Positions 16,173 through 50,193 of a DNA stretch of 64,000 nt are shown here, in pieces (within the stretch, counting starts at the first letter, position 1; each line of letters opens with the position of its first letter). Both the position numbers and the translations under genes were made by a program. The notes under the pieces were generated by a model. That model did not search any database. It saw nothing but the letters and a program-made list of their open reading frames with translations, and had not been told where the DNA came from. Where the stretch lies: NCBI RefSeq assembly GCF_046105845.1, contig NZ_CP151004.1; one strand, 5' to 3'. This DNA comes from Escherichia coli. Lineage in GTDB: Bacteria; Pseudomonadota; Gammaproteobacteria; Enterobacterales; Enterobacteriaceae.

Positions 16173-16189
16173 GTAAGCATCTGTCAGAA

Positions 16190-16224
16190 AGGCCAGTCTC
16201 AAGCGAGGCTGGCCTTTTTCTTTT
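16190..16224 (+). terminator. Rho-independent terminator of rpoS
   Basis: GC-rich hairpin AGGCCAGTCTCAAGCGAGGCTGGCCT followed by a T-run, about 18 nt after the rpoS stop. Confidence 0.6.
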
Positions 16225-21035: not shown

Positions 21036-21073
21036 ATCTGCCGGAGAGCCATACTCTCCGGCAAATAAGGCGT

Positions 21074-21546: not shown

Positions 21547-23625
21547 TTAAATCAATGCCGATTTATCAATTCCCAGTCGCTTCATCCGTGACAGCAGAGT
21601 CGTGCGTTTCAGCCCCAGACGTTGCGCAGCGCCTTTAGGCCCGGCAACCACGCCGTTGGTTTCTTTCAGCACGCGAACAATCAACTGATATTCATCTTCG
21701 CCCTCCTGGGCGACAACCGTTGCGGCAGGCGGCGTTTCTGGTTCCGGTAAAACAATATCTGGCAGTGACAGCTGCAGCACGTTGCCGCGTGTTAGCAATA
21801 CCGCGCGCTCAATGACGTTTTCCAGTTCGCGTACGTTACCCGGCCACTCCATGTTGCTCAGGATGCGCAGCGTCTCGGCAGGAATGCTGTCGATATTGCG
21901 CCCCAGACGACGGGCAATTTTGAAGGTAAAGGCTTTCGCCAGCAGCGGAATATCTTCCGGACGCTCGCGTAGTGGCGGCAGGTGAATCGGGAATACGTTC
22001 AGGCGGTAATAGAGATCGCTACGGAACTCACGGTCGGCGACCATTTTTTTCAGATCGCGGTTAGTTGCGGCGATTAGACGCACGTCCGTCTGAATGATTT
22101 TGTTGCTGCCGAGACGTTCAAACTCCTGTTCCTGTAATACACGCAGCAACTTCGGCTGTAACTCCAGTGGCATATCGCCCACTTCGTCGAGGAACAGGGA
22201 GCTTTTATCCGCCAGTTCAAAACGACCGATACGCTGGGCGCTGGCACCGGTAAAAGCCCCACGCTCATGACCAAACAGATCGCTCTCTAGCAATCCGGCA
22301 GGCATCGCCGCGCAGTTCATTTTTACCATGCGGCGATTATTACGCCCACTGAGATTATGGATCGCGCGGGCAATCAGCTCTTTACCCGTGCCAGTTTCAC
22401 CGAGGATCAGCACGGTACTGTCGCTTTGCGCCACCATTTCAACTTGTTTAAGTACGCTGTACATGGCTTCGCTGCGGCCAATAATCTCGCCAAATTCACT
22501 ATCAACATTGTTGAGCTGCTCGGTCAGGGCGAGGTTTTCATCAACCAGCCGTTCTTTCAGACGATGGATTTCCTGATAGGCGAGGGCGTTATCGACAGCG
22601 ATTGCCACACGTTCGGCAATCTGGCGCAGTAAATTCAGATTGGTAGTGGTAAACACTTTCTCTTCGCATTGCGCCAGTTTCAGCACGCCCAGCATGGTGT
22701 CGCCAGACATCAGCGGTAACAGGCACAAGGTTTGAATCTGGTTGCCCCAGGTGTCGAACAACATGCGTTCATAGGGGGCTAAATCGTCCCGCTCGTGGAG
22801 ATTAATCAGCAGCATCTCTTTGCTTTTGAACACGCGTTCGGTGAGGGTTCCGGCTTCATCGACTTCGCTCTGTTCGTGGGCGGGATGCTGTTTATCAAGA
22901 TAGTGAGTGGAGTAGATGTTGAGTTTGTTTTTACGGTGGCTGCGTAAGACGATGCTGATATCGTCAATGTCGAAGTAGTAATGGATTTCTTTGGCGACTT
23001 CGCTGACCAGTTCGTCCATATCCAGGCGGGAAAGCACCGCGTTGGTAATGGCAACCAGGATGCGGAAGTTATCGCGCTCCCGGCATAACAACTCATAGTC
23101 GACATTATTGACGACGCGGCTCTGGATTTGTTCGGTGACGACAGAAACGATCTGCGTAAATGTTTGCAGACGATTGAACTCTTTTTCGCTCCAGGGGCGA
23201 TCGTCATAACGAATAAATTCACAGCCACCAAAAATATGCCCTTCCGCCGCCAGTGGCATCAGGCAATAGTGACCAAATTTGGGGTATAGCCCACCTGCGG
23301 CCAGCTGCGGCCAGGTTTCACAAAATTCTTCGTAACTGCAATGCAGCGTATCAGGGCGCGACAAAATGCTGCGTACCGGACCGTGTGCCAGAACAGTTTC
23401 GTCTTCATATTTAATGGGGGTGTCTTTTTCACGCGATGCGTAATAAGACGCACGTTGAGTCTGCGCTTGCCACAACACAATAGCCGCGTTGTCGGCGAGC
23501 GCAGAACGCTTTACCAGTTGCGAAAGAGCCTCACACAGCGAGGCCAGATCGGGCTGCTGCAATAGTGTCCGAGTGATGTCGAACAACCCTTGTTGTCCGA
23601 GATCACTCATCGGTGTATATGACAT
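21547..23625 (-). CDS. fhlA: Formate hydrogenlyase transcriptional activator FhlA (sigma54 enhancer-binding protein)
   Basis: Internal ATG of track ORF gives MSYTPMSDLGQQGLFDITRTLLQQPDLASL… (692 aa); AAA+ sigma54-interaction domain ([14 protein letters not shown]). Confidence 0.95.
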   Translation of the reverse strand: MSYTPMSDLGQQGLFDITRTLLQQPDLASLCEALSQLVKRSALADNAAIVLWQAQTQRASYYASREKDTPIKYEDETVLAHGPVRSILSRPDTLHCSYEEFCETWPQLAAGGLYPKFGHYCLMPLAAEGHIFGGCEFIRYDDRPWSEKEFNRLQTFTQIVSVVTEQIQSRVVNNVDYELLCRERDNFRILVAITNAVLSRLDMDELVSEVAKEIHYYFDIDDISIVLRSHRKNKLNIYSTHYLDKQHPAHEQSEVDEAGTLTERVFKSKEMLLINLHERDDLAPYERMLFDTWGNQIQTLCLLPLMSGDTMLGVLKLAQCEEKVFTTTNLNLLRQIAERVAIAVDNALAYQEIHRLKERLVDENLALTEQLNNVDSEFGEIIGRSEAMYSVLKQVEMVAQSDSTVLILGETGTGKELIARAIHNLSGRNNRRMVKMNCAAMPAGLLESDLFGHERGAFTGASAQRIGRFELADKSSLFLDEVGDMPLELQPKLLRVLQEQEFERLGSNKIIQTDVRLIAATNRDLKKMVADREFRSDLYYRLNVFPIHLPPLRERPEDIPLLAKAFTFKIARRLGRNIDSIPAETLRILSNMEWPGNVRELENVIERAVLLTRGNVLQLSLPDIVLPEPETPPAATVVAQEGEDEYQLIVRVLKETNGVVAGPKGAAQRLGLKRTTLLSRMKRLGIDKSALI

Positions 23626-23698
23626 TTTGTTCTTCCAGGAAAGCACCGCAAAGCGGTGCAAAAGGTCATTGACTAACTATAGGAGATTTAGAATTTTA

Positions 23699-27362: not shown

Positions 27363-27475
27363 GTGTTGATTATCCCTGCAGTGAATAATGTCGATGATGT
27401 CGAAATGACACGTCGACACGGCGACGAAATTCATCTTTAGCTTAAAAATCGCTTTAATAACAATGAATTAAAAGT

Positions 27476-27527: not shown

Positions 27528-27989
27528 ATGACTATTTGGGAAATAAGCGAGAAAGCCGATTACATCGCACAGCGGCATCGTCGCCTACAGGACCAGTGGC
27601 ACATCTACTGCAATTCGCTGGTTCAGGGGATCACGTTATCGAAAGCGCGCCTGCATCACGCCATGAGCTGCGCGCCGGACAAAGAACTCTGTTTCGTCCT
27701 TTTTGAACATTTTCGTATTTACGTCACCCTGGCGGATGGCTTTAACAGCCACACCATCGAGTATTACGTCGAAACAAAAGATGGTGAAGACAAACAGCGG
27801 ATTGCGCAGGCGCAACTGAGCATTGACGGCATGATTGATGGCAAGGTCAACATCCGCGATCGCGAACAGGTTCTGGAACACTATCTCGAAAAAATCGCTG
27901 GCGTTTACGACAGCTTATACACCGCCATTGAAAACAATGTGCCGGTGAATTTAAGCCAACTGGTAAAGGGACAAAGCCCGGCAGCATGA
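27528..27989 (+). CDS. hycA: Formate hydrogenlyase regulatory protein HycA
   Basis: 153-aa ORF MTIWEISEKADYIAQRHRRLQDQWHIY…, recognised as HycA. Confidence 0.92.
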   Translation: MTIWEISEKADYIAQRHRRLQDQWHIYCNSLVQGITLSKARLHHAMSCAPDKELCFVLFEHFRIYVTLADGFNSHTIEYYVETKDGEDKQRIAQAQLSIDGMIDGKVNIRDREQVLEHYLEKIAGVYDSLYTAIENNVPVNLSQLVKGQSPAA

Positions 27990-28049
27990 GCTGAGGCTTT
28001 GCCCGTTTTGCAGGCGTTACGCCTGTTTGGGGATGGGCGTGTCGATGAG

Positions 28050-28094
28050 TGTCGAAAATGACATTTTATCGGCATGTTTTCGTCAAAAATGACA
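28050..28094. promoter_or_regulatory. Two copies of a TCGAAAATGACA-like motif in the hycA-hycB spacer (candidate FhlA upstream activating sequence)
   Basis: TGTCGAAAATGACA (about 28050..28063) and CGTCAAAAATGACA (about 28081..28094); a related GTCGAAATGACACGTCGAC motif sits in the hyp-hyc intergenic region near 27390..27410. Confidence 0.35.
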
Positions 28095-30550: not shown

Positions 30551-31474
30551 ATGAGTGTTTTATATCCGTTAATTCAGGCGCTGGTGTTATTTGCCGTTGC
30601 GCCGCTGCTCTCCGGTATAACCCGCGTGGCGCGCGCCCGCTTGCATAACCGTCGCGGGCCGGGCGTGTTGCAGGAGTATCGCGACATTATCAAACTGCTG
30701 GGTCGCCAGAGCGTTGGCCCGGATGCCTCCGGCTGGGTGTTCCGCCTGACGCCGTATGTGATGGTGGGCGTCATGCTGACTATCGCTACTGCGCTGCCGG
30801 TGGTGACCGTTGGTTCTCCGCTGCCGCAGCTGGGCGATTTGATCACTTTACTGTATCTCTTTGCCATCGCGCGTTTCTTCTTTGCCATTTCTGGTCTGGA
30901 TACCGGTAGCCCGTTTACCGCTATCGGCGCGAGCCGTGAAGCGATGCTTGGCGTGCTGGTTGAACCGATGCTGCTGCTTGGTCTGTGGGTCGCCGCACAG
31001 GTTGCCGGTTCCACCAACATCAGCAACATCACCGACACCGTTTATCACTGGCCGCTGAGCCAGAGCATTCCGCTGGTGCTGGCGCTTTGTGCCTGTGCAT
31101 TCGCCACCTTTATCGAAATGGGCAAACTGCCGTTCGACCTGGCGGAAGCCGAGCAGGAGTTGCAGGAAGGTCCGCTCTCTGAGTATAGCGGCAGCGGCTT
31201 TGGCGTCATGAAATGGGGTATCAGCCTGAAACAGCTGGTGGTGTTGCAGATGTTCGTCGGGGTGTTTATTCCGTGGGGACAAATGGAAACCTTCACCGTC
31301 GGTGGGTTGCTGCTGGCGCTGGTGATTGCCATCGTCAAACTGGTGGTTGGCGTCCTGGTTATCGCGCTGTTCGAAAACAGCATGGCCCGTCTGCGTCTTG
31401 ATATTACTCCGCGCATTACCTGGGCTGGGTTTGGCTTTGCATTTTTAGCGTTCGTCTCCTTGCTGGCGGCGTGA
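30551..31474 (+). CDS. hycD: Formate hydrogenlyase membrane subunit HycD
   Basis: 307-aa membrane ORF, NuoH-like. Confidence 0.92.
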   Translation: MSVLYPLIQALVLFAVAPLLSGITRVARARLHNRRGPGVLQEYRDIIKLLGRQSVGPDASGWVFRLTPYVMVGVMLTIATALPVVTVGSPLPQLGDLITLLYLFAIARFFFAISGLDTGSPFTAIGASREAMLGVLVEPMLLLGLWVAAQVAGSTNISNITDTVYHWPLSQSIPLVLALCACAFATFIEMGKLPFDLAEAEQELQEGPLSEYSGSGFGVMKWGISLKQLVVLQMFVGVFIPWGQMETFTVGGLLLALVIAIVKLVVGVLVIALFENSMARLRLDITPRITWAGFGFAFLAFVSLLAA

Positions 31475-31491
31475 TTAAAGAGAGTTTGAGC

Positions 31492-33201
31492 ATGTCTGAA
31501 GAAAAATTAGGTCAACATTATCTCGCCGCGCTGAATGAGGCATTTCCGGGCGTCGTGCTGGACCACGCCTGGCAGACCAAAGATCAGCTGACTGTCACCG
31601 TAAAGGTGAACTATCTGCCGGAAGTAGTGGAGTTTCTCTATTACAAGCAGGGTGGCTGGCTGTCGGTGCTGTTTGGTAACGACGAACGCAAACTGAATGG
31701 TCATTACGCCGTTTATTACGTGCTGTCGATGGAGAAGGGCACCAAATGCTGGATAACCGTGCGCGTTGAAGTTGACGCCAACAAACCGGAATATCCGTCC
31801 GTAACGCCGCGCGTTCCGGCGGCGGTATGGGGCGAGCGTGAAGTGCGCGATATGTACGGTTTGATTCCGGTAGGGCTGCCGGATGAACGTCGTCTGGTGC
31901 TGCCGGATGACTGGCCGGATGAACTTTATCCGCTGCGTAAAGACAGCATGGATTATCGTCAACGTCCGGCACCGACTACCGATGCTGAAACCTACGAGTT
32001 CATCAACGAACTGGGCGACAAGAAAAACAACGTCGTTCCGATTGGTCCGCTGCACGTCACTTCTGACGAACCGGGCCACTTCCGTCTGTTCGTCGATGGC
32101 GAAAACATTATCGACGCCGACTACCGCCTGTTCTATGTCCATCGCGGCATGGAAAAACTGGCGGAAACCCGCATGGGTTACAACGAAGTGACCTTCCTCT
32201 CTGACCGTGTGTGCGGGATCTGCGGCTTTGCTCACAGCACCGCCTACACCACGTCGGTGGAAAACGCGATGGGTATTCAGGTGCCAGAACGTGCGCAGAT
32301 GATCCGCGCCATTCTGCTGGAGGTAGAACGCCTGCACTCGCATCTGCTCAACCTCGGCCTCGCCTGTCACTTTACCGGCTTCGACTCCGGCTTTATGCAG
32401 TTCTTCCGCGTGCGTGAAACCTCCATGAAAATGGCAGAGATCCTTACCGGTGCGCGTAAAACCTACGGCCTGAACCTGATCGGCGGGATTCGTCGCGATC
32501 TGCTGAAAGATGACATGATCCAGACCCGTCAACTGGCACAGCAGATGCGTCGTGAAGTGCAGGAGCTGGTGGATGTGCTGCTGAGCACACCGAACATGGA
32601 ACAGCGCACCGTCGGTATTGGTCGTCTGGACCCGGAAATCGCTCGCGACTTCAGTAACGTTGGCCCGATGGTCCGTGCCAGCGGTCACGCCCGTGATACC
32701 CGTGCCGATCACCCGTTTGTTGGTTATGGCCTGCTGCCAATGGAAGTCCACAGCGAGCAGGGCTGCGACGTTATTTCCCGTCTGAAAGTGCGAATCAACG
32801 AGGTCTATACCGCGCTGAACATGATCGACTACGGTCTGGATAACCTGCCGGGCGGTCCGCTGATGGTGGAAGGCTTTACCTACATTCCGCACCGTTTCGC
32901 GCTGGGCTTTGCCGAAGCGCCGCGCGGCGACGATATCCACTGGAGCATGACCGGCGACAACCAGAAGCTGTACCGCTGGCGCTGCCGTGCGGCGACCTAC
33001 GCGAACTGGCCGACCCTGCGCTACATGCTGCGTGGCAATACCGTTTCCGATGCGCCGCTGATTATCGGTAGCCTGGACCCTTGCTACTCCTGTACCGACC
33101 GCATGACGGTGGTCGATGTACGTAAGAAGAAGAGCAAAGTGGTGCCGTACAAAGAACTCGAGCGCTACAGCATTGAGCGTAAAAACTCGCCGCTGAAATA
33201 A
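31492..33201 (+). CDS. hycE: Hydrogenase 3 large subunit HycE
   Basis: Internal ATG of track ORF gives MSEEKLGQHYLAALNEAFPGVVLD… (569 aa); NiFe-binding cysteine motifs (RVCGICGFAHS near the N-terminal site, DPCYSCTDR near the C-terminus). Confidence 0.93.
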   Translation: MSEEKLGQHYLAALNEAFPGVVLDHAWQTKDQLTVTVKVNYLPEVVEFLYYKQGGWLSVLFGNDERKLNGHYAVYYVLSMEKGTKCWITVRVEVDANKPEYPSVTPRVPAAVWGEREVRDMYGLIPVGLPDERRLVLPDDWPDELYPLRKDSMDYRQRPAPTTDAETYEFINELGDKKNNVVPIGPLHVTSDEPGHFRLFVDGENIIDADYRLFYVHRGMEKLAETRMGYNEVTFLSDRVCGICGFAHSTAYTTSVENAMGIQVPERAQMIRAILLEVERLHSHLLNLGLACHFTGFDSGFMQFFRVRETSMKMAEILTGARKTYGLNLIGGIRRDLLKDDMIQTRQLAQQMRREVQELVDVLLSTPNMEQRTVGIGRLDPEIARDFSNVGPMVRASGHARDTRADHPFVGYGLLPMEVHSEQGCDVISRLKVRINEVYTALNMIDYGLDNLPGGPLMVEGFTYIPHRFALGFAEAPRGDDIHWSMTGDNQKLYRWRCRAATYANWPTLRYMLRGNTVSDAPLIIGSLDPCYSCTDRMTVVDVRKKKSKVVPYKELERYSIERKNSPLK

Positions 33202-35446: not shown

Positions 35447-35475
35447 ACGGGTGTTTACATATTGTGAACACCCGT
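35447..35475. promoter_or_regulatory. Inverted repeat upstream of the toxin gene (candidate antitoxin operator, or hycI terminator hairpin)
   Basis: ACGGGTGTT-N11-AACACCCGT (9-bp arms) 80-110 nt upstream of the higB-like ATG; further TGTGAACA/TGTTCAC-like copies at about 35403..35412; no T-run follows. Confidence 0.3.
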
Positions 35476-39512: not shown

Positions 39513-40523
39513 ATGACGACGATGCTGGAAGTGGCGAAGCGCGCCGGGGTTTCAAAAGCGACCGTTTCCCGCGTGCTTTCAGGTAATGGCTACGTCAGCC
39601 AGGAGACTAAAGATCGCGTGTTTCAGGCGGTAGAAGAGAGCGGTTACCGTCCAAACTTGCTGGCGCGCAATCTGTCGGCGAAGAGTACTCAGACGCTGGG
39701 GCTGGTCGTGACCAACACACTTTACCACGGCATTTATTTTAGTGAATTACTCTTTCATGCCGCGCGAATGGCGGAAGAGAAAGGGCGACAGTTGCTATTG
39801 GCAGATGGTAAACACAGCGCCGAAGAAGAGCGCCAGGCGATTCAGTATCTGCTGGATTTGCGCTGCGACGCCATTATGATTTACCCGCGTTTTTTAAGTG
39901 TGGATGAGATCGATGACATCATTGACGCGCACAGTCAGCCGATAATGGTGCTTAATCGCCGCCTGCGCAAAAACAGCAGCCATAGCGTCTGGTGCGATCA
40001 TAAACAGACCAGCTTTAACGCCGTGGCAGAGTTGATAAACGCCGGACATCAGGAGATTGCTTTCCTTACCGGCTCGATGGATTCCCCCACCAGCGTTGAA
40101 CGTCTTGCCGGGTATAAAGACGCGCTGGCGCAGCATGGTATTGCGCTCAATGAAAAACTTATCGCTAACGGTAAATGGACGCCTGCCAGCGGGGCCGAAG
40201 GGGTAGAAACGTTGCTCGAACGTGGGGCTAAATTTAGCGCGTTAGTTGCCAGTAACGACGATATGGCGATAGGTGCGATGAAAGCGTTGCACGAGCGCGG
40301 CGTAGCGGTGCCAGAGCAGGTGTCAGTTATCGGATTCGATGATATCGCTATTGCCCCCTACACCGTTCCGGCGCTCTCCAGCGTAAAAATTCCGGTGACT
40401 GAGATGATTCAGGAAATTATTGGACGGCTGATTTTTATGCTCGATGGCGGGGATTTCTCACCGCCGAAAACCTTCAGCGGAAAACTGATCCGCCGCGGCT
40501 CCCTCATTGCTCTTTCGCAATAA
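39513..40523 (+). CDS. ascG: LacI/GalR-family repressor of the asc operon
   Basis: Internal ATG of track ORF gives MTTMLEVAKRAGVSKATVSRVLSGNGYVSQ… (336 aa); divergent from ascFB. Confidence 0.92.
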   Translation: MTTMLEVAKRAGVSKATVSRVLSGNGYVSQETKDRVFQAVEESGYRPNLLARNLSAKSTQTLGLVVTNTLYHGIYFSELLFHAARMAEEKGRQLLLADGKHSAEEERQAIQYLLDLRCDAIMIYPRFLSVDEIDDIIDAHSQPIMVLNRRLRKNSSHSVWCDHKQTSFNAVAELINAGHQEIAFLTGSMDSPTSVERLAGYKDALAQHGIALNEKLIANGKWTPASGAEGVETLLERGAKFSALVASNDDMAIGAMKALHERGVAVPEQVSVIGFDDIAIAPYTVPALSSVKIPVTEMIQEIIGRLIFMLDGGDFSPPKTFSGKLIRRGSLIALSQ

Positions 40524-40537
40524 ACATTGTCATCACA

Positions 40538-40571
40538 TGTCATCGTCACTAGTGTCGATGACATCGTTTTT
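40538..40571 (+). terminator. Hairpin plus T-run after ascG (candidate terminator, or regulatory inverted repeat upstream of hydN)
   Basis: Near-perfect 24-26-bp inverted repeat TGTCATCGTCACTAGTGTCGATGACA followed by TCGTTTTT, about 15 nt after the ascG stop and about 100 nt before hydN. Confidence 0.4.
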
Positions 40572-40671
40572 CCTGCATTACAGAATTTAATTTCTTTAAA
40601 TAACAGTAAATTAAAAACTGGCATGATTTGTGAATGTATCGGCGCATTAACTGTCATTGCTGGAGAATTTG

Positions 40672-41199
40672 ATGAACCGTTTCATCATTGCTGACGCGAG
40701 TAAATGTATTGGTTGCCGTACCTGTGAAGTGGCGTGCGTGGTTTCTCATCAGGAGAATCAGGACTGTGCATCGCTGACCCCGGAAACTTTTTTACCGCGA
40801 ATCCATGTCATTAAAGGTGTGAACATTTCCACGGCAACAGTCTGCCGTCAGTGTGAAGATGCACCGTGCGCTAACGTCTGCCCGAATGGTGCTATCAGTC
40901 GTGATAAAGGGTTTGTTCATGTGATGCAGGAACGTTGTATTGGTTGCAAAACCTGCGTTGTGGCTTGCCCGTATGGCGCGATGGAAGTGGTGGTACGTCC
41001 GGTGATTCGCAACAGCGGCGCGGGGCTGAATGTACGGGCTGACAAAGCCGAAGCCAATAAATGCGACCTCTGTAACCATCGTGAAGACGGCCCGGCGTGT
41101 ATGGCGGCTTGCCCGACTCATGCGCTGATTTGTGTCGATCGTAATAAACTTGAACAACTGAGCGCAGAAAAACGCCGCCGTACGGCGCTGATGTTCTAA
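40672..41199 (+). CDS. hydN: Formate dehydrogenase-H associated 4Fe-4S electron transfer protein HydN
   Basis: Internal ATG of track ORF gives [22 protein letters not shown]… (175 aa) with four ferredoxin-type clusters. Confidence 0.92.
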
Positions 41200-41351: not shown

Positions 41352-43592
41352 ATGGCAAAAAACATATCTTGCGGTGTCCAACTGCGTATTCGTGGCAAAG
41401 TGCAGGGCGTCGGTTTTCGTCCGTTTGTCTGGCAGCTGGCACAGCAATTAAATCTTCACGGCGATGTCTGTAATGACGGCGATGGCGTAGAAGTCCGGCT
41501 GCTGGAAGACCCGGAAACGTTTCTTGTGCAGTTGCATCAGCACTGCCCGCCGCTGGCGCGTATTGATAGCGTCGAGCGTGAGCCGTTTATCTGGTCACAA
41601 CTGCCCACTGAGTTCACTATCCGCCAGAGCACAGGCGGCACCATGAATACGCAAATTGTCCCGGATGCCGCCACTTGCCCTGCTTGCCTTGCCGAAATGA
41701 ATACCCCGGGCGAGCGGCGTTATCGTTATCCGTTTATCAACTGTACCCACTGCGGCCCACGTTTCACCATTATTCGCGCGATGCCTTACGACCGCCCGTT
41801 TACCGTGATGGCGGCGTTTCCGCTGTGTCCGGCCTGTGACAAAGAATATCGCGACCCGCTCGATCGTCGCTTCCACGCCCAGCCGGTGGCCTGCCCGGAG
41901 TGTGGCCCACATCTTGAATGGGTAAGTCATGGTGAACATGCAGAACAAGAGGCGGCATTACAGGCAGCTATCGCACAGTTAAAAATGGGCAACATTGTCG
42001 CCATCAAAGGGATTGGCGGATTTCATCTCGCCTGCGATGCGCGTAACAGTAACGCGGTGGCGACACTGCGGGCGCGCAAACATCGCCCGGCGAAACCGCT
42101 GGCGGTTATGTTGCCAGTGGCAGAAGGTTTACCAGACGCTGCCCGTCAGTTGCTTACCACACCCGCCGCGCCGATTGTGCTGGTGGATAAAAAATACGTT
42201 CCTGAGCTTTGTGATGATATCGCCCCTGGCCTTAACGAAGTTGGGGTGATGTTGCCTGCGAATCCGCTTCAGCATTTGCTGTTACAGGAACTGCAATGTC
42301 CGCTGGTGATGACCTCCGGCAACCTGAGCGGTAAACCACCGGCTATCAGCAACGAACAGGCGCTGGCGGATTTGCAGGGCATTGCCGACGGATTCTTGAT
42401 ACATAACCGCGACATCGTGCAGCGGATGGATGATTCGGTGGTGCGTGAAAGCGGCGAAATGCTGCGCCGTTCGCGGGGGTATGTGCCGGATGCGCTGGCT
42501 TTGCCTCCGGGCTTTAAAAATGTTCCGCCTGTGCTGTGTCTCGGCGCGGATCTGAAAAATACCTTCTGCCTGGTGCGCGGTGAACAAGCAGTGTTGAGTC
42601 AGCATCTGGGCGATTTAAGTGACGATGGCATCCAGATGCAGTGGCGCGAAGCGTTACGCCTGATGCAAAACATCTACGATTTTACCCCGCAATACGTTGT
42701 GCATGACGCACATCCGGGCTATGTCTCCAGCCAGTGGGCGCGCGAAATGAATCTGCCGACGCAAACGGTGCTGCATCATCATGCTCATGCGGCGGCGTGT
42801 CTGGCAGAACATCACTGGCCGCTGGATGGCGGTGATGTCATTGCGTTGACGCTCGACGGTATCGGTATGGGGGAGAACGGCGCTTTATGGGGCGGCGAGT
42901 GCCTGCGGGTGAACTATCGCGAATGCCAGCACCTGGGCGGCTTGCCAGCGGTGGCGCTTCCGGGGGGCGATTTGGCTGCAAAGCAGCCGTGGCGTAACCT
43001 GCTGGCGCAGTGCCTGCGCTTTGTGCCGGAGTGGCAGAATTACCCTGAAACGACAAGTGTGCAACAGCAAAACTGGAGCGTGCTGGCGCGGGCCATTGAG
43101 CGTGGAATTAACGCGCCGCTGGCGTCATCGTGTGGGCGTTTGTTCGATGCTGTGGCGGCGGCGCTGGGCTGTGCGCCAGCCACGTTAAGTTATGAAGGTG
43201 AAGCAGCTTGTGCTCTGGAGGCGCTCGCAGCTTCGTGCGACGGAGTGACGCATCCGGTGACGATGCCGCTGGTGGACAATCAACTGGATCTCGCCACTTT
43301 CTGGCAGCAGTGGCTGAACTGGCAGGCACCGGTTAATCAACGCGCGTGGGCGTTTCATGATGCGCTGGCGCAGGGTTTTGCCGCGTTGATGCGTGAGCAG
43401 GCCACGATGCGCGGTATCACTACGCTGGTATTTAGCGGTGGGGTTATTCATAACCGATTGCTGCGTACACGCCTGGCGCATTATCTCGCTGATTTCACAT
43501 TGCTCTTTCCGCAGAGTTTACCGGCGGGTGATGGCGGCTTGTCTCTGGGGCAGGGGGTTATTGCTGCGGCGCGCATCCTGCATACTGCATAG
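41352..43592 (+). CDS. hypF: Hydrogenase maturation carbamoyltransferase HypF
   Basis: Internal ATG of track ORF gives [30 protein letters not shown]… (about 747 aa): acylphosphatase domain, two zinc-finger CxxC pairs, YrdC and Kae1-like domains. Confidence 0.93.
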
Positions 43593-46285: not shown

Positions 46286-46302
46286 TTGCAGATTGCGTGC
46301 CA
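46286..46302 (-). promoter_or_regulatory. sigma54 promoter of norVW
   Basis: Minus strand reads TGGCACGCAATCTGCAA with GG/GC at -24/-12 spacing; about 36 nt upstream of the norV start. Confidence 0.6.
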
Positions 46303-50094: not shown

Positions 50095-50129
50095 AACTTT
50101 TCCTTAATGTAGTGGCGGAAGTCCTGTAT

Positions 50130-50193
50130 GCCTGATGAGCGTAGCGCATCAGGCATTCTATTAGTCGCGCGGAGATCCTTAAAAGATCTCCGC
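50130..50193. repeat. REP-type palindromic elements between srlD and gutM
   Basis: GCCTGATGAGCGTAGCGCATCAGGC (8-bp arms) at 50130..50154 and GCGGAGATCCTTAAAAGATCTCCGC at about 50168..50193, in the 105-bp intercistronic spacer. Confidence 0.5.

Follow-up and report, generated by a model that had tools for sequence, protein, structure and literature searches.

The FhlA sites of the formate regulon were reportedly footprinted by Schlensog 1994 and Leonhartsberger 2000. Promoters of the sigma-54 class need an upstream-bound enhancer-binding protein to fire, typically 70–150 bp away (PMC3844500), and the helix-turn-helix of FhlA, one such protein, is reported to contact the DNA from one side (cited in PMC11291172). 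In Escherichia coli, expression of hydN-hypF is enhanced by formate-FhlA, and the operon is counted as part of the formate regulon in a 2025 review (PMC11841067). In Salmonella, the orthologous hydN-hypF site was bound in ChIP-chip, the operon showed 13-fold sigma-54-dependent up-regulation, and FhlA is listed as its activator, with Maier 1996 cited there (PMC3844500). A full-text literature search found no description of the hydN enhancer sequence or of an ascG terminator.

What, then, is the long inverted repeat that separates ascG from hydN? We analyzed a stretch of 64,000 nucleotides of E. coli chromosome from contig NZ_CP151004.1 (hereafter, the window), for which the original prediction had called the role of this repeat ambiguous, either a terminator or a regulator site. 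The regulator part of that statement stands, while the terminator part falls as a conserved function. The palindrome is real and functional, and it lies in a known control region of a known operon—that is, in already known biology. Judged by its sequence and context, it is very probably the upstream activating sequence (UAS), or enhancer, through which FhlA would act on the sigma-54 promoter of hydN-hypF.

The spacer between ascG and hydN

The genes and elements that bear on this question, in window coordinates, are as follows.

ascG, 39513–40523, plus strand: LacI-family repressor of the asc beta-glucoside operon, with its stop codon TAA at 40521–40523, outside the hydN control region (RefSeq annotation of a 100% identical E. 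coli record; LacI-family matches)
Extra half-site TGTCATCAC, 40528–40536, plus strand: one helical turn (10 bp) 5' of the palindrome's left arm, recognized from sequence
Palindrome ATGTCATCGTCACT followed directly by AGTGTCGATGACAT, 40537–40564, strand not applicable: proposed FhlA UAS, centered at 40550.5, or about -94.5 relative to the predicted start of hydN
TTTTT run, 40567–40571, plus strand: after a 2-nt CG gap 3' of the palindrome; with the hairpin it resembles a weak intrinsic ascG terminator; not conserved
IHF-like element TAACAGTAAATTA, 40601–40613, plus strand: degenerate relative to the consensus WATCAANNNNTTR, in the A+T-rich spacer
Sigma-54 promoter TGGCATGATTTGTGAA, 40619–40634, plus strand: ChIP-seq peak OS26, gSELEX peak and RpoN matrix
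hydN, 40672–41199, plus strand: ferredoxin-like electron-transfer protein, first gene of the hydN-hypF operon (RefSeq annotation; NCBIfam equivalog HydN, 383 bits)
hypF, 41352–43592, plus strand: annotation transferred from the identical RefSeq record
ascF, minus strand: annotation transferred from the identical RefSeq record
fhlA, 21547–23661, minus strand: gene of the sigma-54 enhancer-binding protein, in the same window as the palindrome (NCBIfam equivalog NF011958, 1547.6 bits); the open reading frame (ORF) starts 11 codons before the profile match

The annotation and the NCBIfam equivalogs bear out the gene context that had been noted, with ascG, the palindrome and hydN in that order. The near-perfect palindrome and T-run described 3' of ascG are likewise there, the 26-bp core TGTCATCGTCACTAGTGTCGATGACA occupying 40538–40563. 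In a repeat search, the full arms (40537–40550 and 40551–40564) are 14 nt each, complementary at 13 of 14 positions (93%) and separated by no gap. Positions 40400–40800 are 100% identical in many complete E. coli genomes, with a match in 5425 of 5426 genomes, and the K-12 MG1655 spacer carries the same palindrome and promoter (the MG1655 coordinate is 2878777 minus the window coordinate). Small ORFs that cross the spacer (40527–40694 on the plus strand; 40409–40657 on the minus strand) were rejected as mechanical, because conservation there fits DNA motifs and not codons. Across genera, the hydN 5' leader (40640–40671, ending …CTGTCATTGCTGGAGAATTTG before the ATG) is well conserved even outside the GGAG ribosome-binding site, and it holds another TGTCA unit.

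How unusual is such a palindrome? Counting arms of 13 nt with at most one mismatch and a spacer of at most 6 nt, we found palindromes at five distinct places in the window, against 0.31 ± 0.63 expected from 100 first-order Markov simulations. The hydN palindrome sequence is unique in the window, even at three mismatches, and an Rfam scan of 40300–40900 at E ≤ 1 gave no match. The four further long near-perfect palindromes (35447–35475, 50128–50156, 16188–16217 and 21036–21066) have 13-nt arms and loops of 3–5 nt; they are G+C rich and are probably ordinary terminators or REP-like elements.

The promoter downstream of the palindrome had been put down as a weak sigma-54 candidate only (TGGCAT…TTGTG), which was wrong. 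The sequence CTGGCATGATTTGTGAA is the exact motif under sigma-54 ChIP-seq peak OS26, a peak that has been assigned to hydN and flagged as experimentally confirmed in EcoCyc, with transcription predicted to start 27 nt before the ATG of hydN, at about 40645 in the window (PMC4591121). The RpoN holoenzyme also gives a gSELEX peak in the ascG-hydN spacer (PMC8743547). By sequence alone the promoter is indeed weak, at 10.6 bits and rank 21 in the window with the RpoN matrix, but the ChIP-seq and gSELEX occupancy settle the question. Its -24 element, TGGCAT with the GG at 40620–40621, is a good match to TGGCAC-N5-TTGCW (GG-N10-GC), whereas the -12 element reads GTGA in place of TTGC, keeping the conserved G and replacing the C by A. 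A sigma-70 promoter (ATGACA-17-CAGAAT, 40558–40586) was rejected, as its one weak match compares with 2.4 expected by chance.

Apart from the hyc, hyp and hydN promoters, strong RpoN-matrix matches in the window are TGGCACATCTACTGCA (27597–27612, plus strand, 15.0 bits), inside an ORF at 27528–27989 that is presumably hycA; TGGCACAGCAGATGCG (32534–32549, plus strand, 13.7 bits), inside the large ORF 31471–33201; and TGGCACGCAATCTGCA (46287–46302, minus strand, 16.5 bits), which matches the published norV promoter motif.

Conservation across hydN loci and the case for a terminator

Does the palindrome travel with ascG or with hydN? A HydN scan with one genome per species gave a comparative set of 80 loci from about 20 genera, including Escherichia, Salmonella, Citrobacter, Klebsiella, Raoultella, Enterobacter, Kluyvera, Kosakonia, Lelliottia, Trabulsiella and Cedecea. 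The motif GWCATCGWCA-N4-TGWCGATGWC lies upstream of hydN in 78 of these 80 Enterobacteriaceae loci, and the remaining two keep the core CGTCA-AAAG-TGTCR. The consensus of the hydN-type palindrome is TGTCATCGWCA-N4-TGWCGATGACA. Among the 78 loci, 65 have the identical left arm TGTCATCGTCA; on the right, 51 have TGACGATGACA and 24 have TGTCGATGACA. The central 4 nt, by contrast, occur in 18 different forms. An arm mismatch (the T/A wobble) goes uncompensated in 28 of the 78, E. coli included, and both arms are changed in just three loci, so that there is little compensatory change. Near-invariant arms, a free center and an uncompensated wobble indicate, from these alignments, base-specific recognition of the DNA by a protein rather than selection on an RNA stem. 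Conservation also extends outward: the column-conservation profile shows a conserved GTCGTCA block directly 5' of the palindrome, the most frequent 12-mers there agree with it, and the extra half-site reads TCGTCAGC or TCGACATC in other genera.

The distance from the palindrome to the promoter GG falls into two classes, 58.5–61.5 bp (30 loci) and 68.5–71.5 bp (48 loci), which are one helical turn apart. Insertions and deletions in the spacer have therefore been accepted only in one-helical-turn steps, as expected if a bound protein must face the promoter. Within the promoter itself, no genus departs from the TGG or from the downstream TG. The quality of the two elements varies reciprocally, with zero exceptions in 78 loci: those with a canonical -24 (TGGCAC or TGGCAT) have a noncanonical -12 (TGAA or TGTA, with no GC), and those with a degraded -24 (TGGAAC, TGGCTC, TGGCGC or TGGCGT) all have a canonical TGCA. 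This trade-off could serve as a natural test set for rules of sigma-54 promoter strength.

The palindrome is kept where ascG is missing, namely in Salmonella (L012 and L014), Cedecea (L059), E. albertii (L009) and Intestinirhabdus (L017). In Salmonella enterica arizonae and diarizonae and in Cedecea, hycI lies directly 5' of hydN and the asc cluster is absent; E. albertii has two unrelated ORFs 5' of hydN, and Intestinirhabdus has an upstream region with no ascG match and with ORFs unlike those of E. coli. The palindrome stands at about -121 from the hydN ATG in these ascG-less loci. Because hydN directly follows hycI in Salmonella and Cedecea, the ascG-ascFB cluster looks like an insertion, or a case of differential loss, between the hyc operon and hydN. 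Some Escherichia and Citrobacter loci (L005, L011, L028 and L033) apparently retain only a degraded 3' remnant of ascG.

These comparisons bear directly on the proposal that the hairpin and T-run form a Rho-independent terminator of ascG, as the main role of the element or as a second role in the E. coli lineage. The arrangement in E. coli is suggestive: the palindrome begins 14 nt 3' of the stop codon of ascG, its RNA would fold into a hairpin of -13.1 kcal/mol (z = -3.75 vs. shuffles) with CG and UUUUU behind it, folding a longer stretch of the region gives -16.1 kcal/mol, and in most genera ascG ends just 5' of the palindrome. However, only 13 of the 78 loci have a T-run, scored as at least four T in the 12 nt that follow the palindrome, and 65 lack one; the run is not commoner where ascG is present (8 of 67 loci) than where it is not (5 of 11). 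The palindrome is fully conserved in genomes that lack ascG, one third of the loci carry the stem mismatch described above, and the base of the stem is A/U rich; a consensus terminator scan did not report the element. Nor do four supplementary tables of a genome-wide E. coli 3'-end map (PMC7815308) contain ascG or hydN 3' ends, although ascG is probably too weakly expressed for this absence to be decisive. With the T-run unconserved, the palindrome persisting without ascG, and neither a scan call nor a mapped 3' end, ascG termination is not what keeps the palindrome, and the claim that it can serve as the ascG terminator is unsupported as a conserved function. We regard the terminator reading as unlikely; a weak, lineage-specific effect on ascG in E. 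coli would be at most a side effect.

A related and similarly doubtful idea is that, in the E. coli and Salmonella lineages, the enhancer gained a T-run, so that the same 28 bp might be both a DNA enhancer and a weak RNA terminator, or that bound FhlA might act as a roadblock. If either were true, hydN-hypF would be insulated from upstream read-through—from ascG in E. coli and from hyc in Salmonella.

An FhlA-type core in the hydN palindrome

If the palindrome is an FhlA enhancer, it should resemble the other enhancers of the regulon. The hyc/hyp intergenic enhancer, in the same window, reads aATGTCGATGATGTCGAAATGACACGTCGACAcggcgacgaaat; a second enhancer region, in the hycA-hycB spacer, reads gTGTCGATGAgTGTCGAAAATGACA…tTCGTCAAAAATGACA; and the fdhF enhancer of K-12, tttCGTCACGTCAAAACTGACGACA, includes CGTCA-AAAC-TGACG. 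The pattern YGTCR-N4-TGWCR is common to all three and to the center of the hydN palindrome, which is CGTCA-CTAG-TGTCG in E. coli and CGTCA-N4-TGACG in most genera. There are 13 matches to this pattern in the window against 2.25 expected, including those at 27389, 28050, 28081 and 40544, an enrichment that is supportive but partly circular and not independent, because the pattern was written after seeing the sites. The word TGWCGATGA has 7 matches in the window against 1.09 expected, 4 of the 7 within three enhancer regions; the hydN palindrome has this word in common with 27389 and 28040. Around the hydN dyad, GTC/GAC triplets are centered at about -20.5, -10.5, -4.5, +4.5 and +10.5, and the 10-bp phase of the outer ones is consistent with the one-sided helix-turn-helix binding reported for FhlA (PMC11291172).

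Matches to the core pattern also occur inside genes (32055–32068, 23100, 24990, 25892, 39914, 50883 and 51811). These may reflect codon bias or weak extra sites. The first is a perfect palindrome, CGTCACTTCTGACG, in the large ORF 31471–33201 of the hyc gene run. This match and the one at 39914 in ascG were rejected as hydN-like, since their flanks do not continue the hydN palindrome. The hycA-hycB spacer (28040–28094) holds a second cluster of FhlA-type units, TGTCGATGAgTGTCGAAAATGACA … TCGTCAAAAATGACA.

Published descriptions of FhlA sites recover the hydN site poorly. A 14-nt FhlA matrix (PMC7658346) puts hyc/hyp sites in its two top places, but with it the hydN center gets 7.0 bits and rank 191 in the window, a low score that follows from its demand for an A-rich center; we rejected it as positive evidence for the hydN site. 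Its top match in the window, at 17.1 bits, is in the hycA-hycB spacer. The idealized FhlA consensus CATTTCGTACGAAATG (PMC4987338), allowing up to three mismatches, matches neither at hydN nor at the known hyc/hyp enhancers, and it is nondiscriminating for hydN because it misses those known enhancers too. The consensus derived here from 78 loci defines this hydN-type FhlA site more cleanly than do the matrices in use, which score it too low.

Could the palindrome bind some other dimeric regulator, whether AscG, HyfR or some unknown hydN repressor? Palindromic symmetry would suit any dimeric protein of the helix-turn-helix type, the published FhlA matrix fits the site weakly, and HyfR is a close paralogue of FhlA that could share its sites. 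Yet AscG is excluded as a conserved partner, because the palindrome exists without ascG; a site near -95, in phase with a sigma-54 promoter, has the position of an enhancer, not an operator; and the sequence core is common to the enhancers of three other FhlA-dependent promoters. Taken together, these observations leave little room for another regulator, and we consider one highly improbable. Sites for NtrC, NorR and GlrR were rejected, as their consensus sequences (PMC4987338) do not fit the palindrome. Still less credible, and already contradicted, is a functionless chance or selfish (e.g., REP-like) repeat, which has an intergenic location in its favor and nothing else, against the simulated expectation for the window, the uniqueness of the sequence, the empty Rfam scan and conservation at one orthologous position across about 20 genera.

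The FhlA reading is supported by position, regulon membership, conservation, phasing, the common core and the presence of fhlA in the same window. The center of the palindrome lies 69.5 bp before the GG at 40620 and at about -95 from the predicted start near 40645, inside the 70–150 bp enhancer range. The suggestion of a dimeric regulator site in the hydN promoter region thus gains support and can be given a name—an FhlA enhancer—as the element is kept with hydN in 78 of 80 loci, also without ascG, in helical phase with the promoter and with a core common to the hyc/hyp and fdhF enhancers. Between enhancer and promoter, the strict IHF consensus is found in 13 of 78 loci, with its start at a constant 19 nt from the GG, and a relaxed form in 47 of 78, E. 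coli included; the element at 40601–40613 is a possible IHF bending site, to judge by its sequence.

How would such a region work? We infer FhlA contact with these bases, DNA looping and IHF involvement. Some 95 bp upstream of the start, a formate-activated FhlA oligomer would bind the repeated GTCA/TGAC units and the extra half-site from a single side of the helix. The DNA would loop through its A+T-rich spacer, perhaps with a bend made by IHF, so that FhlA could touch the closed complex of RNA polymerase and sigma-54 on TGGCAT-N5-GTGA, and ATP hydrolysis would then open the complex and allow transcription of hydN-hypF. On this model, the ascG-hydN spacer is a textbook sigma-54 control region of the formate regulon, with enhancer, A+T-rich spacer and -24/-12 promoter. 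Its importance is small beyond correct annotation: the palindrome should be annotated neither as an ascG terminator nor as an ambiguous element.

Likeness to known systems

How does the proposed hydN enhancer compare with described elements? Like the FhlA UASs of E. coli hyc/hyp, hycA-hycB and fdhF, it lies upstream of a sigma-54 promoter whose operon is induced by formate, consists of GTCA/GTCG and TGAC units in the arrangement YGTCR-N4-TGWCR, and places several units on one helical face; with both hyc/hyp enhancer regions (27389 and 28040), it has the word TGTCGATGA in common. It differs from the other FhlA UASs in being much longer and cleaner, with arms of 11–14 nt, and in a central 4 nt that is not A rich (CTAG vs. 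AAAA, AAAC or ATGA), and it is a single, compact site, unlike the spread-out cluster at hyc/hyp.

A Rho-independent terminator would likewise have a stem-loop and a short U-run directly after a stop codon, as seen here in E. coli and a few relatives. In contrast to such terminators, however, the hydN stem has an A/U-rich base and an internal U·U mismatch, its U-run is only 5 nt long, offset by 2 nt and unconserved, and its arms are conserved in sequence.

More broadly, the hydN palindrome is like the sites of other enhancer-binding proteins—NtrC at glnAp2, NorR at norV and GlrR at glmY—in being an inverted repeat some 70–150 bp upstream of a promoter of the GG-N10-GC type. The sequences recognized are different (TGCACC-N4-GGTGCA for NtrC, GT-N7-AC for NorR and TGTC-N10-GACA for GlrR; PMC4987338), but such generic sites work through DNA looping, often with an IHF bend in between, and it is to these that the arrangement upstream of hydN can be likened.
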